A stretch of DNA of 64,000 bases from Planctomycetota bacterium (GTDB lineage Bacteria > Planctomycetota > Planctomycetia > Planctomycetales > Planctomycetaceae), in assembly GCA_031424595.1 (NCBI GenBank), contig JANPHT010000712.1, positions 2,572-66,571 on the forward strand. Direction: 5' to 3'. Positions 45,444-50,215 of this stretch are shown piece after piece; the first letter of the stretch is position 1, and every line of letters begins with the position of its first letter. The notes under the pieces were generated by a model. That model ran no database searches. It worked only from the letters and a program-made list of their open reading frames with translations, and had not been told where the DNA came from. The position numbers were made by a program, and so were the translations under genes.

Positions 45444-46598
45444 TTACTGTGCTGTCGACTTACTGCCACTCGGTGAGCCTACAATTGGAGTTCCTGCTGG
45501 AAGCGGACGAGCAGCGACGCGAAGTTGCAAACCATGAGCGACCTCACGCAAAGCTGCGAATCCTTTGAAGGAATCCGGGTAGATCCACATCGTTACCACC
45601 GTGTCGGGAACTGCGGTTTCGATTCCCTGGCGATACCGCGAACCTGGTCTAATGGCTTCGTCGAAAGTTTCATCGACCAATGATTCAACTGGTTCAATCG
45701 TCCAGCGAGACACATTGACTCGCGTTCTGCCATCGCCGGATTGCAGGGCTTCCAGGGTCGAGGGGCCTTCTTTTTCCACAGTGTAGGTCATTGTGTAACC
45801 ATTCACCGGGCCAACGGTCCCTTCGAACTGATTGAAACGCATCACGGTTGTGCTGCGACTCCTGACCTGAGCCTTCAGTCGCTCCAGAAGTTGGTCCAGA
45901 GGCACCTGGCTGATGCGCCCATTGCTGATCCGGAAGTGCAATTCGTCTTTCTCCACAGGCTTCGTGACGGGCGAAAGTCTGTGCTGCATCACGTCTCTGG
46001 GGACTGCAGCCTGCTTTGTTTCCTCAAGGACTTCCTTCAGCCGCTGTGTTTCAATCACGGTCGTGCGGAGCTCTTCATCCAAATCCTGTTCGGCGATTAT
46101 GGCTGTAGCAAGCACTTGTCCAACCTGGCGGGCTTTTTCACCCTTTTCGTCGATTGCTTTCTGAAGTGAAACCACGCGAGTTTCCAATGCCGCGCGATCG
46201 GACTCAAGGTCTGTGACCTGCTTTTGCATTCGACTCGACTTTTCCCGCTGTGCCGCCAACTGCTGCCGCTCAAGCTCCTGCTCTTCCATCGTTTTCTGGA
46301 TCTGCTGCTGAGCCCGTTCGCTATCTGACTGAAGTGACTTCAACTTTTGCGACAATTGTACTTCCGACTCCTGCAACTTCCCCAATGTCTGCTGCCTGCT
46401 GGCCATTTCTGAGGCCTGATGGACTCTTTGGGCCTGCGCCTCAGAAGTAACATCGCTAAATCCCACTTTGGGCTGTCGATCGACCTTCACTCCGACAACG
46501 ACAATGAGAATGATTAAAATGCCGACGATGTTGCAGACGACATCAAGAAACGAGTCGGAACCAAATTCAAGTTCGGGTCTTTGTGCACGTCGGCTCAT
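45444..46598 (-). CDS. Single-pass membrane protein: ExbD/TolR-like TM helix (Asp retained), coiled coil of about 150 residues, C-terminal globular domain (gene 3 of the MotA-like operon)
   Basis: SFLDVVCNIVGILIILIVVV resembles the ExbD TM (E. coli TPFIDVMLVLLIIFMV), with Asp19. Residues about 50-200 are heptad-like and Q/E/K/L/S-rich. The C-terminal ELHFRISNGRISQVP...VVTMWIYPDSFKGFAALREVAHGLQLRV is ExbD-domain-like. Confidence 0.7.
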   Translation of the reverse strand: MSRRAQRPELEFGSDSFLDVVCNIVGILIILIVVVGVKVDRQPKVGFSDVTSEAQAQRVHQASEMASRQQTLGKLQESEVQLSQKLKSLQSDSERAQQQIQKTMEEQELERQQLAAQREKSSRMQKQVTDLESDRAALETRVVSLQKAIDEKGEKARQVGQVLATAIIAEQDLDEELRTTVIETQRLKEVLEETKQAAVPRDVMQHRLSPVTKPVEKDELHFRISNGRISQVPLDQLLERLKAQVRSRSTTVMRFNQFEGTVGPVNGYTMTYTVEKEGPSTLEALQSGDGRTRVNVSRWTIEPVESLVDETFDEAIRPGSRYRQGIETAVPDTVVTMWIYPDSFKGFAALREVAHGLQLRVAARPLPAGTPIVGSPSGSKSTAQ

Positions 46599-46717
46599 GA
46601 TAGTTTCTGTGAGTTGGTCAGATCTCGATCAGTTGTTGTTCTGAGATACAAGGAGTTGCAATTCGTCCCAGGTGACCTCTCCGGCAGATACGATGACTCT
46701 GCGGAGAGAAGCCCTGG

Positions 46718-48760
46718 CTACAGTTGCTCATCGTTCTCCAGCCGGGCTCTTCCTGTTTCATCACTTTTGGTCATGTACGGCGTCAATTCATAGACCGTTG
46801 CCGATCGAATGCCCGTTCGTTTGAGAGAGTGAGCCAGCGGAATTCGCCACTTTTCACCACCTGGGCTGACAATGAATTTTACGATCGGCATGATGGGCTC
46901 ATGCGGATTCCGTTTTGTGTCATCGACTTCCGTGTTAATGCCCGTCAGCAACGTAGCAAACACTGCGTCAAGTGTTTCGGGAGTCACTTCCACGGAAGGC
47001 TGTTGTGCAACTGTCATATGATGTTCATCAAGAAAAACCGTGATCCCAATCGGAGTGGCCTGACTACTGGACTGGCTCTTCCCGGAACCAAGCCTCCTGA
47101 GCAGGTCAGGGTCAATCTTTGACAGATCCGGAATTCCGGTCGAGGGTTTCCCACCTTCCTCACCGGCAAATAACAGGCTGTCCGGTTGACGGCCCGTCTT
47201 CGATTTTTCAGTAGTCCCGGGAACTTCGGAAGCTGACGATTGCGATTTTGAATCACTTGCCAGAACCGATGAGACTGGCCAATCGGACTCCTTGGTTGCT
47301 TCTCTGGACTTTGCCGCCCGCATCCGTCCATCACTGCCAAACAGGGATTCTGCAAATCTTCGTTCACCAGGAGATCTTAAAACGTCAGCACTGGAACCAT
47401 TCACAGTCTCTGCCAGACTTTCCTGAGGTGGCTCTTCGGCGGCCGCAGTCGGAGACGCTTGACGTCTGGCATAACGTTCTGCAAATTCGTCGGCCAGTTT
47501 TTCAGCGTCCTCGGCTGTCATTCGATCCGGATTAAGTCCTGAGTATCCGCCAGCAGGTCGGTTTTGAAAGTGGGAACGTGGAGGTGCAACACCTCCAGCG
47601 TAAAACCGTCCATCCAGCGGTCTCGACTCCACGCCTTCGTTCATCAGAACTCGACCGTCCGGACGAACCGTCAATCGACGCTCGGCCGGTGATTTTCCAG
47701 GCCCGCCTGATTCCTGCAATCCTGATTTCTGTTGAGCAATGGCCATCAGTTTCGCATAGAGATTTTCGCGTCGGGTCAATGCCTCCCGAATCGAAGCCTG
47801 AATGGCGGGGGTTTCGGTTGGATCCGGTTCGCCAGCAACGACTCTATGATCTGACTCGAGCAACTCGTATCCGAAATGAATATGCGAATCAGTCAGAATC
47901 TTCTGTGCCCCATAAAACGCGAGGGATCCATCAGGGCGAACCAGTAAGAGCACATAGGGTTCTGCTGTGACGGAGTTCCCTGAGCGAAGCCGATGCGTGG
48001 TGAGAATGGCCGACAGCAACGGATTGTCCCGGATCGGAAATCCTTCCATTTCCGCAGCGGAGATCCGAATACCGTTTGGAAGAAGCTCAAAGCCGCTCGC
48101 GGAAACGTCAATCACTAGAGGAGTTCGAGTGGTACCAGTTGAATTGGAGAATTCGAGTAAGGTCGACGTTCCGGAAATCGTCTTCAGCTGTTTCGTCGCT
48201 TCCTCGACCTGGGCGCGAAGGCTGATCAGGTCAGAGTGCTTTTTCTGCAATACAAGAGAGGCGTCTTTCGAAGCTTCCTCGGCCTGGACGAGTTGCTGCT
48301 GTTTATCAAACAGCTGCTTCTCGGAATCTTTAAGTTGCCTTAATAAGGCTGCCTCTTTTGCTTTGAGTTGTCTCGACTCAGTCAACGAGCGTGTGACCGT
48401 GGTCTGAGTTTCGTCGCCACTTTCTTCAGGTTTGCTTTGGAGACTCTTCAGTTCTTCCTGCAGGCTGGCAATCGTGGCCTGATTCTCTATCACGCTGGCG
48501 CTGAGAGCCACTGCGTTGGACTGCATTGCCAAAACGTTGTCTTGTGCCGACTTGATCTTCGCTTCCAGATCTGCAATCTCAGAACTGTGATCCGGTTCCG
48601 CAGGCACAGAGGCAACAACGGTCGCGTGTTCAATGAGCTGATCCTGTCGCATTTTTCGTGTCATCACGAGCAGCAGCAGAATCAATGACCCCATGGCGCA
48701 GACGAGCACGGCCAGAAATGGGAACAGCGAGATAGAATTGTGGTGCTGTTTCCGAGCCAT
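46718..48760 (-). CDS. Single-pass membrane protein: ExbD-like TM helix with Ala in place of Asp, coiled coil, two ExbD-like globular domains separated by a disordered linker (gene 2 of the MotA-like operon)
   Basis: ISLFPFLAVLVCAMGSLILLLLV TM; coiled coil at aa about 55-200. The first globular region is PLVIDVSASGFELLPNGIRI...PYVLLLVRPDGSLAFYGAQKIL. An S/P/E/G-rich linker spans aa about 395-560. The second region is IGITVFLDEHHMTVAQQ...PIVKFIVSPGGEKWRIPLAHSLKRTGI. Confidence 0.7.
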   Translation of the reverse strand: MARKQHHNSISLFPFLAVLVCAMGSLILLLLVMTRKMRQDQLIEHATVVASVPAEPDHSSEIADLEAKIKSAQDNVLAMQSNAVALSASVIENQATIASLQEELKSLQSKPEESGDETQTTVTRSLTESRQLKAKEAALLRQLKDSEKQLFDKQQQLVQAEEASKDASLVLQKKHSDLISLRAQVEEATKQLKTISGTSTLLEFSNSTGTTRTPLVIDVSASGFELLPNGIRISAAEMEGFPIRDNPLLSAILTTHRLRSGNSVTAEPYVLLLVRPDGSLAFYGAQKILTDSHIHFGYELLESDHRVVAGEPDPTETPAIQASIREALTRRENLYAKLMAIAQQKSGLQESGGPGKSPAERRLTVRPDGRVLMNEGVESRPLDGRFYAGGVAPPRSHFQNRPAGGYSGLNPDRMTAEDAEKLADEFAERYARRQASPTAAAEEPPQESLAETVNGSSADVLRSPGERRFAESLFGSDGRMRAAKSREATKESDWPVSSVLASDSKSQSSASEVPGTTEKSKTGRQPDSLLFAGEEGGKPSTGIPDLSKIDPDLLRRLGSGKSQSSSQATPIGITVFLDEHHMTVAQQPSVEVTPETLDAVFATLLTGINTEVDDTKRNPHEPIMPIVKFIVSPGGEKWRIPLAHSLKRTGIRSATVYELTPYMTKSDETGRARLENDEQL

Positions 48761-48832: not shown

Positions 48833-50215
48833 TTAAGCCACAGCTCTGAGAGCCGTTTTTGCCGTCAGGACATTCACCGCGGCGTTAAGGCTGTTCACTG
48901 TCTGTTCCAGCGTTTCCACAACCTGAAGGGTCTGGAGGTTCTTGTTCAGCTGATCCTGAAGATGAATGAGTCGTTCTTCAGACTCGGTCATCTGCAACAG
49001 AGTCCGTCCGAGACGATGCAACTCCTCCGCCTGACCTGCTGATGAAAGCGTCGTCTCTTTCATAGCACTTTGCCAGGCGTCAACTCGTTCGACGAACGAC
49101 AGTAGCGTTGACTGCATTTGTTCCGTAAAGGTCTGAGTGCTTTGTTGCAGTGATTTCGCGTAGAGATCGCGAGAAAACTCGACGCTCTCACGATGAACCT
49201 GAAGAGTCTGGTGAGTCTCCTGTCCCAATGCCTGAGCCAGTGAGTCCGTTTGCTGAGTGAGCGACTCAGCCCATCCGCTTTGCAGGGACATCAGGTGACG
49301 ATTCCAGAACTCCGTCTGTTGAGCCAGCATTTGCGAGGTCCAGTCTGACAGGGCTGGAATTCCCATCGTCTGGTGGCTGGCGGATTCTGTTGTCAGCGAG
49401 GGAACAAGGTGGTCAATTCCCAGTTGTTCAATTTCATTGAGAATGTTCTGCTCGCCGCGCTCGACAAGGAAGGTTCCAAAAACCAGCAGCATCGACATCC
49501 CGAGTGCCTGAGCCGTTGTGTCGAAGGCCACGGCAAGGCCGGATGTTACCTCGGGAAGTGATGAATCCAGTTGTTCGGGAGTCACATTGGCAATGGCCAT
49601 GGTGATGCCCACAACGGTACCAAGAAAACCCATGATCGGAACGGCCCAGGTGACTGTGCGAATCAGCGAGTAGCTCTGAAGCAAACGATCCGATGCGAGA
49701 TCCGCAAGATATCTCAGATGATCTTCCAGTCCGCTGCCATCCGGGCGATTGCCGACGTAATGCAGGACATCATTGAGTCGCTGTCCGACGGTCGTGGCGG
49801 CAAGTTTATTTGTACGTGATTTTTTCTGCCAGACTCTCAAGCCGGTTACAACTTCAGCAGAAGCAGAGCCTCCCATTGACCAGGAACCCTCTTGAGCCAA
49901 CTCAAGCAGCGACCTCAGGGCCCTGCGTTCGACCGGCAATGATTTTAGTTTAGCCCACAGTATTCCCATCCCCACGAAGAACATCCCCGACGTAATGTAC
50001 TCAAGAGGATGTCCGCAGAAGTATCGCTGGACGAACTCCGGCCCTCCAGGGAAAGGTTTCGCGGCCCATGGTGCCACAATGTAAAAAACCACTGTGACAC
50101 CAAGTCCCAGCAACATTCCTGCCACCGTCGATGACCGAGATTGTCGCTGTGATGGCACCGAAGACACGGACTCCGGAGTCCCGGACGATTGTGGCGTTGG
50201 GTGATCTTTGGGCAC
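48833..50215 (-). CDS. MotA/TolQ/ExbB-family proton-channel protein with MotA-like four-TM topology and a C-terminal helical tail of about 190 residues (gene 1 of the operon)
   Basis: WAVPIMGFLGTVVGITMAI...SGLAVAFDTTAQALGMSMLLVFGTFLV matches the MotA_ExbB core (G-x-x-GTV-x-GI ... G-I/L-A-x-A-x-x-T-T-A-x-G-L). There are two N-terminal TM helices and a loop of about 100 residues before TM3. The tail after TM4 is Q/T/S/E/L-rich. Confidence 0.8.
   Translation of the reverse strand: MPKDHPTPQSSGTPESVSSVPSQRQSRSSTVAGMLLGLGVTVVFYIVAPWAAKPFPGGPEFVQRYFCGHPLEYITSGMFFVGMGILWAKLKSLPVERRALRSLLELAQEGSWSMGGSASAEVVTGLRVWQKKSRTNKLAATTVGQRLNDVLHYVGNRPDGSGLEDHLRYLADLASDRLLQSYSLIRTVTWAVPIMGFLGTVVGITMAIANVTPEQLDSSLPEVTSGLAVAFDTTAQALGMSMLLVFGTFLVERGEQNILNEIEQLGIDHLVPSLTTESASHQTMGIPALSDWTSQMLAQQTEFWNRHLMSLQSGWAESLTQQTDSLAQALGQETHQTLQVHRESVEFSRDLYAKSLQQSTQTFTEQMQSTLLSFVERVDAWQSAMKETTLSSAGQAEELHRLGRTLLQMTESEERLIHLQDQLNKNLQTLQVVETLEQTVNSLNAAVNVLTAKTALRAVA

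Follow-up and report, generated by a model that had tools for sequence, protein, structure and literature searches.

A conserved aspartate/alanine split between the membrane helices of two partner proteins encoded beside a MotA/TolQ/ExbB-family gene in Planctomycetales

Models of the MotAB, ExbBD, and TolQR motors contain two identical axle helices whose aspartates alternate in ion binding. In the AglR-AglQ-AglS gliding motor of Myxococcus xanthus, one TolQ-like gene is accompanied by two different TolR-like genes. A heterodimer of AglQ and AglS inside an AglR pentamer has been predicted by modeling (PMC11761067), and both proteins are described as having a conserved mid-membrane Asp; whether they form homo- or heterodimers was left open in a review of 5:2 motors (PMC9389320). 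Heterologous pairs of tolR-like genes and pairs encoding TPH-vWA proteins, located beside tolQ-like genes, represent uncharacterized motors, some of them from PVC bacteria, in which the two helices proposed to enter the pore differ from each other and each monomer is reported to contribute one conserved aspartate (PMC12204202). Here, we report on a three-gene locus in a 64,000-nucleotide stretch of DNA (the window) from a Planctomycetota bacterium of the family Planctomycetaceae (GenBank assembly GCA_031424595.1, contig JANPHT010000712.1, positions 2,572 to 66,571 of the forward strand), in which a MotA/TolQ/ExbB-family gene (gene 1) is followed by genes for two putative axle proteins (gene 2, or partner 1, and gene 3, or partner 2), only the second of which has the Asp. 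To the author of a preliminary description of the window, such a pairing of a charged and an uncharged helix was not known as a feature of the canonical systems. Heterologous axle pairs have already been proposed, as outlined above; the published hetero-pairs keep both Asp, and the new element here is that one of the two partners has lost it in a conserved manner. In the literature consulted, neither a partner lacking the Asp nor a stator with a single Asp was found, and no report of a conserved pair with one Asp.

Genes 1, 2, and 3 are arranged head to tail on the minus strand of the window. Gene 2 (46718-48760; 680 residues) encodes a short N-terminal tail, an Asp-less membrane helix, a long helical stalk, and two alpha/beta domains with a disordered linker, while gene 3 (45444-46598; 384 residues) encodes a short N-terminal tail, a membrane helix with Asp19, a single helix of 144 residues, an alpha/beta head, and an invariant C-terminal peptide. 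Reading on the minus strand, gene 3 begins with an ATG at 46598 and its codon 19 (46544-46542) is GAT, encoding Asp; gene 2 begins with an ATG at 48760 and its codon 17 (48712-48710) is GCC, encoding Ala. The residues and coordinates given in the preliminary description are thus correct. The gene 3 membrane helix spans residues 13-38 (46485-46562; GSDSFLDVVCNIVGILIILIVVVGVK) and reads GSDSFLDVVCNIVGILIILIV, and that of gene 2 spans residues 11-34 (48659-48730; consensus SLFPFLAVLVCAMGSLILLLLVMT) and reads SLFPFLAVLVCAMGSLILLLLV.

To evaluate conservation of the two residues, family alignments were compiled from database relatives with less than 85% mutual identity, comprising 44 gene 3 sequences (alignment A1; lowest identity to the window protein, 45%) and 48 gene 2 sequences (alignment A2; 40%). 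Asp19 was present in 44 of 44 gene 3 relatives and Ala17 in 48 of 48 gene 2 relatives, and every N-terminally intact sequence among the top 120 matches of each search had the same residue. The membrane helix is the best-conserved segment of both proteins, with a mean majority-residue fraction of 0.97 in gene 2 (0.46 in its stalk) and 0.93 in gene 3 (0.40 in its stalk); residues G13, D15-D19, and N23-V33 of gene 3 are invariant across the 44 sequences. A gene 2 profile search of 1.84 billion cluster representatives (50% identity) recovered 526 relatives at E <=1e-30, and among the best 150 of these, 125 were N-terminally intact, with 120 having Ala and five having Asp (LFPFLDTLVC and similar). 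In a sample of 400 Planctomycetota genomes, gene 3 orthologs were identified in 22 of the 23 genomes from three related Planctomycetales families within one class (19/20, 2/2, and 1/1), and only weak gene 3 relatives were detected outside of those families. Across these 22 genomes, gene 3 has Asp in all, while gene 2 has Ala in 19, Thr in one, and Asp in two, the last both belonging to one genus. The survey of orthologs that the preliminary description had proposed therefore bears out that Asp and Ala are each conserved. A sequencing or annotation artifact was also considered and rejected: GCC is one base from GAC, yet Ala is present in more than 100 independent orthologs.

Comparison of A1 and A2 with hhalign (probability 97.35%, E = 1.6e-11, columns 1-239 against 1-244) placed the FLD of gene 3 (Asp19) opposite the FLA of gene 2 (Ala17), and the alignment was collinear from the first residue, across helix and full stalk, to the first strands of the heads. 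The same register was obtained with the N-terminal 45 residues alone (E = 2.8e-4, probability 41%), so that the placement of Asp19 opposite Ala17, originally made by eye, holds in both the full-length and the N-terminal comparison. Collectively, these observations confirm that the Asp/Ala split is real, conserved, and correctly aligned. The stalks alone aligned with an E value of 4e-6, which may be partly compositional, and the head domains showed no similarity (probability <=0.2%). Because helix and stalk align and the heads are unrelated, genes 2 and 3 share a homologous helix-plus-stalk module instead of being full-length paralogs; the term 'paralogous' in the preliminary description holds for the membrane helix plus stalk and fails for the globular domains. 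Full-length paralogy was likewise ruled out by BLASTP, which detected coiled-coil similarity only (E = 0.002).

Sister modules were identified by searching the same genomes with gene 1 and then reading the downstream genes. In type A, to which the window locus belongs, a MotA-like ring protein with a long tail accompanies a partner 1 with Ala (SLFPFLAVL) and a partner 2 with Asp (SFLD). Type B comprises a MotA-like ring protein with an N-terminal zinc ribbon, a partner 1 with Ser (SLFPFLS(I/V)LACVIG), and a partner 2 with Asp (LDSLLDTMxNVVG); the Ser was found in nine loci and in 118 of 118 database relatives. Type C has a short MotA-like ring protein, and Asp is present in both its partner 1 (SLFAFQDIIMS) and its partner 2 (LELLLDTICN). 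Type D has a ring protein of ~260 residues and a single partner with Asp (FSISFLDVFC), with no partner 2. The types with two partners keep the gene order of ring gene, 'LF.F' partner, and 'LLD' partner. Profiles of the first 60 residues matched across types for partner 1 (A-B, 98.5%; B-C, 97.4%; A-C, 92.5% probability) and for partner 2 (95-98% probability), and comparisons of partner 1 with partner 2 profiles across types were weaker but real. Within partner 1, LFPFLA, LFPFLS, and LFAFQD align residue by residue, with a Gly seven positions on in each, and Ala17 (48710-48712) therefore stands where type C partner 1 and partner 2 carry Asp. The family alignments and these cross-type N-terminal profiles rule out both a misalignment and an acidic residue at another position of the gene 2 helix. 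The Asp-less state is found in both type A (Ala) and type B (Ser), and the Asp of partner 1 may have been lost either once or twice.

All partner helices have in common a helical stripe in which the key residue is followed, after three residues, by Asn, Cys, or Ser and, after two more, by Gly, as in D19-N23-G26 of gene 3 and A17-C21-G24 of gene 2. Among sister loci (L071-L112), the stripe reads S-C-G and D-N-G in the two partners of type B, D-S-G and D-N-G in those of type C, and D-C-G in type D, whereas the canonical ExbDs of the same genome lack it (no Gly). Four genomes (G344, G095, G043, and G070; loci L085, L086, L087, L093, and L095) encode a window-type trio as well as a zinc-ribbon and/or a type C trio; several subfamilies thus coexist in one genome, and therefore they are not interchangeable copies. 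Ahead of type C ring genes lies a gene that encodes a GYF-like 'WYY' protein. At two loci (L073 in G275 and L109 in G393), two consecutive partners both have an 'SF(L/I)D' Asp motif, and at L073 the ring gene is separated from the partners by a Ser/Thr kinase-like gene.

In the genus whose partner 1 carries Asp (genomes G255 and G383), the pair is encoded without an adjacent ring gene (loci L057 and L061), and partner 1 of G383 reads 'LFSYLDGLVC'. In G255, a gene 3-type N-terminal module is joined to a gene 2-type body, which suggests that the N-terminal modules of genes 2 and 3 are interchangeable and occupy equivalent places. The best ring relative in this genus is unlinked and reads 'AFNTT' and 'GTVVHFG' in place of the 'AFDTT' and 'GTVxGIT' of other type A rings (L076 and L077). 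No simple rule emerged by which the ring would compensate for the lost Asp, with 'AF(D/E)TT' occurring in all subfamilies. 'AFNTT' accompanies an Asp-bearing partner 1 in this single genus (one event) but also a Ser-bearing partner 1 in two type B loci, and therefore no rule can be drawn from the Asp-bearing genus.

Of 21 orthologous loci from the three families, 19 have a gene 1 ortholog immediately upstream of the gene 2 and gene 3 orthologs and so keep the order gene 1-gene 2-gene 3; genes 1-3 are a fixed three-gene module. No conserved neighbors of the trio were detected within ~4 kb in the 21 loci, where the flanking genes are housekeeping genes that differ between loci; in the window, the trio is flanked by a divergent glycoside-hydrolase-like gene and by a split coaC/coaB pair read from the plus strand. 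A scan of the operon for promoters and terminators detected sites no commoner than in shuffled sequence.

Gene 1 (48833-50215, minus strand) encodes a four-helix membrane protein of 460 residues that would form the pentameric ring. It matches the Pfam model PF01618 (MotA_ExbB) over residues 157-263 (49427-49747) with 42 bits against a cut-off of 22.9, and with 45.8 bits in a whole-genome search. This core includes the third (WAVPIMGFLGTVVGIT) and fourth (GLAVAFDTTAQAL) transmembrane helices, and the motifs 'GF(L/I)GTV' and 'AF(D/N)TT' are near-invariant in an alignment of 19 orthologs and paralogs. The ring helix with an acidic residue and threonines ('AFDTT') resembles those of ExbB-ExbD and TolQ-TolR, and we take it to be comparable to ExbB Glu176/Thr181. 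By motif position, the gene 1 motifs would likewise be equivalent to ExbB Thr148/Thr181. Ring proteins of types A-D, when aligned, all keep 'GF(L/I)GTV' and 'AF(D/E/N)TT'.

The C-terminal tail of gene 1 comprises ~195 residues after the fourth membrane helix (48836-49423), is rich in helix formers, is alignable among orthologs, and has a ZorA-like architecture. PADLOC ZorA2 models match gene 1 at residues 176-399 (E = 4.3e-10), and the combination of a MotA-like subunit with a long C-terminal helical tail is a point of likeness to ZorA-ZorB of Zorya. However, the window locus has no ZorB-type partner with a peptidoglycan-binding domain and no ZorC, ZorD, or ZorE, and the Zor models match gene 1 only (ZorA-type) and neither gene 2 nor gene 3. 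Zorya was therefore ruled out. The occurrence of the module in 22 of 23 sampled genomes and the lack of conserved neighbors fit a housekeeping role better than a defense island.

Membership of genes 2 and 3 in the ExbD/TolR family was unsupported by hidden Markov model (HMM), profile, or fold searches. The Pfam model PF02472 did not match gene 2 or gene 3 at E values up to 1, while the same model finds nine ExbDs elsewhere in the genome, all reading 'TPMIDVVF' with Asp. Tandem pairs of ExbD genes, both encoding the Asp, are frequent in the canonical ExbB-ExbD operons of the genome (contigs C356, C567, and C568; loci L012, L016, and L017). Comparisons of A1 and A2 with eight of these ExbDs using hhalign gave probabilities of 0.1% and 0.2%, and comparisons limited to the N-termini gave E values of 0.11 and 0.016, respectively. 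No Pfam, NCBIfam, or PADLOC family matched gene 2 or gene 3 beyond coiled-coil noise, with none over the Pfam cut-off, and searches of PDB sequences with both family profiles (hmmsearch) likewise returned coiled-coil noise only. Foldseek searches of the PDB with both whole AlphaFold2 (AF2) models, long helices included, returned no TolR, ExbD, or MotB in the top 50, with best E values of 0.03 for gene 3 and 0.02 for gene 2 from weak RNase-H-like, S11-like, and coiled-coil matches. An ExbD/TolR protein would have one N-terminal membrane helix in which an Asp close to the cytoplasmic side never varies; gene 3 fits this pattern (44/44), and gene 2 does not (Ala, 48/48). The designation 'ExbD-like' in the preliminary description is consequently apt for motif and gene context and does not extend to family membership.

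With respect to gene context, the locus resembles ExbB-ExbD and TolQ-TolR in that single-pass proteins with an N-terminal anchor are encoded downstream of a MotA/TolQ/ExbB gene, and in that an (F/I)(L/I)DV motif lies near the start of the helix. It differs from them in that the partners fall outside PF02472 and have 140-residue helical stalks and unrelated heads, in that there are two different partners, one of them Asp-less, and in the ring tail of ~195 residues. It has been considered whether the MotA-like protein and the two stalk proteins could instead be a static scaffold or sensor in which Asp19 is structural. A module with no known function or phenotype, no conserved neighbor gene, and head domains that match nothing solved would allow for this. 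The ring, however, keeps the family-typical 'GF(L/I)GTV' and 'AF(D/E/N)TT' helices, and an invariant buried Asp at the N-terminal end of a single-pass helix beside a MotA/ExbB gene is a signature of ion coupling (PMC9389320); we regard a non-motor role as very unlikely.

On balance, we lean toward the reading that genes 1-3 encode one envelope-spanning, ion-driven motor of the 5:2 type in which gene 2 and gene 3 together form a hetero-axle (5:1:1) with one ion site. Co-assembly of the three proteins is inferred, as is the 5:1:1 stoichiometry, which is drawn from the family to which gene 1 belongs and from the gene context. In such a motor, gene 1 would form a MotA/ExbB-like pentameric ring enclosing a heterodimeric central axle made of one gene 2 and one gene 3 N-terminal helix. 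The stalks of ~140 residues would, given an N-in topology, extend next to each other into the periplasm, each bearing its own, different head. The coupling ion would be bound by the gene 3 helix only, at Asp19, with the gene 2 helix (Ala17) as a passive partner.

Several observations lend indirect support to a hetero-axle, including the kept gene order, the sister subfamilies with the same two-partner order, the module swap in G255, the common stripe, and stalk lengths that covary. Measured from the key residue to the first strand of the head, the span is 143 to 228 residues in gene 2 and 158 to 251 in gene 3 across the 22 genomes, and the two lengths are positively correlated (Pearson r = 0.84, Spearman rho = 0.86), including within one family after near-duplicates were removed (r = 0.72, rho = 0.81). 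This covariation fits paired stalks, and the high conservation of both membrane helices (0.93-0.97) fits tight packing. A home-made heptad and e/g charge-pairing score, applied to hetero versus homo stalks in the 22 genomes, yielded too few scored pairs and unstable offsets. Inspection under the positive-inside rule found the charges flanking the helices to be near balanced; canonical ExbDs also have acidic N-terminal tails.

A different division of labor would have a gene 3 homodimer with two Asp inside the gene 1 pentamer and gene 2 as a TolA/TonB-like force transducer outside of the ring, with Ala reflecting this other role. The layout of gene 2 is TolA-like, with an N-terminal helix, a long helical region, a disordered linker, and a C-terminal globular domain, and the known Ton and Tol motors possess such a third partner (PMC12204202). 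However, the gene 2 helix lacks the His or SHLS-type motif expected of a peripheral TolA/TonB-type helix (His is absent from residues 11-34 in 48 of 48 sequences, as is an SHLS-type motif), and no TonB or TolA Pfam model matches gene 2. Moreover, homology links the gene 2 helix and stalk to their gene 3 counterparts and, via type C, to Asp-bearing partners; the gene 3 stalk is equally long, unlike TolR or ExbD; the stalk lengths of the two proteins covary; and the N-terminal modules have been swapped in G255. We consider a force-transducer role for gene 2 fairly unlikely.

The two partners could also serve in two alternative ring complexes, one with an ion-conducting gene 3 homodimer and the other with a non-conducting gene 2 homodimer of structural or regulatory function. 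Both helices look able to enter the pore, and the corresponding question of homo- versus heterodimers is the one left open for AglQ and AglS (PMC9389320). Yet two Ala helices would leave the ring without an ion site, while the Ala helix is the most strongly conserved segment (0.97). Operon order and covarying stalks fit a fixed pair better, and type D shows that the single-partner version has one partner gene only. Two separate complexes are, in our view, unlikely.

Several points weigh against a gene 2/gene 3 hetero-axle in a motor. Similarity of the two proteins over the helix alone is modest (E = 2.8e-4, probability 41%), and neither is detectably an ExbD/TolR protein by HMM, hhalign (0.1-0.2%), or Foldseek. 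The covariation of stalk lengths could merely mean that both proteins span the same periplasm, and the compared genomes are related, so that the correlation overstates independence. The N-in topology is assumed. Finally, a one-Asp rotary cycle is without precedent because both Asp in canonical motors are thought to work alternately.

With one ion site instead of two, and assuming that the axle rotates, the hetero-axle would pass through five equivalent states per turn, not ten. Non-equivalent axle chains are expected to give five equivalent states per turn, through either 72-degree steps or a 'limping' cycle (PMC9389320). The preliminary description had proposed an obligate heterodimer with built-in asymmetry, an interpretation that the present evidence supports in part. 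A single-carboxylate 5:1:1 motor of this kind, with an obligate hetero-axle, five 72-degree strokes or unequal 36-degree limping, and an asymmetric resting state, is possible, and we put it forward tentatively.

The proposed hetero-axle can be set beside the other described systems. AglQ and AglS have TolR-like periplasmic domains and no long stalks, unlike the window partners. The tolR-like and TPH-vWA pairs are alike in having sizeable periplasmic domains that would rotate together with the axle (PMC12204202), whereas the heads there are vWA domains, the window heads are unlike anything solved, and one window partner has Ala. The window partners, with their single-pass helices and long stalks, are reminiscent of GldL-GldM and PorL-PorM, in which a 5:2 ring surrounds two single-pass helices extended by a long periplasmic shaft (PMC9389320). 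However, no sequence kinship with these systems was detected, the sole match being weak and tail-to-tail with PorL (E = 0.021), and GldM is a homodimer, unlike the proposed gene 2/gene 3 pair. As for charges in GldL-GldM, the axle carries an Arg and the ring a Glu.

The AF2 model of gene 3 (mean predicted local distance difference test score [pLDDT], 80.3) comprises helices at residues 15-39 and 54-197, the latter being the stalk (46008-46439; pLDDT 84-95), and an alpha/beta domain at residues 220-375 (45474-45941), to which no known fold class was assigned. The last 23 residues of gene 3 (362-384; 45444-45512), 'AARPLPxGTPIVGSPxGS(K/R)STAQ', are near-invariant in the 44 relatives, although AF2 confidence is low there; they could be a docking peptide for some partner. 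The gene 2 model (mean pLDDT, 71.6) has helices at residues 13-50, 59-116, and 122-195 and alpha/beta domains at 214-300 and 569-657 that are separated by a disordered region. The gene 2 stalk (residues 59-195; 48176-48586) consists of two long helices with pLDDT mostly 85-94 and aligns with the gene 3 stalk in hhalign. Elsewhere in the same genome (contig C292; L009:26-2109), a further non-canonical module encodes a 229-residue MotA_ExbB-like protein, a 265-residue protein that has TPLLDLLLIVMF and a coiled coil, and, after these, a 191-residue membrane protein.

In canonical motors, one gene encodes both axle helices, and the two ion sites are thus genetically inseparable. If the proposed hetero-axle is correct, the two sites have been naturally separated here, with gene 3 keeping its Asp and gene 2 having lost it. 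The loss has persisted throughout a bacterial order (Ala) and within a sister subfamily (Ser), while another subfamily keeps both Asp. If both helices share one ring, then either a single site suffices or a changed cycle is revealed, and each half of the axle would be open to site-specific mutagenesis. Types A, B, and C together offer a ready set of comparisons against which the alternating-site model of 5:2 motors can be tested. In addition, the module points to an unstudied, would-be envelope-spanning machine in 22 of 23 sampled genomes from three related Planctomycetales families, in which envelope biology and FtsZ-less division are poorly understood.

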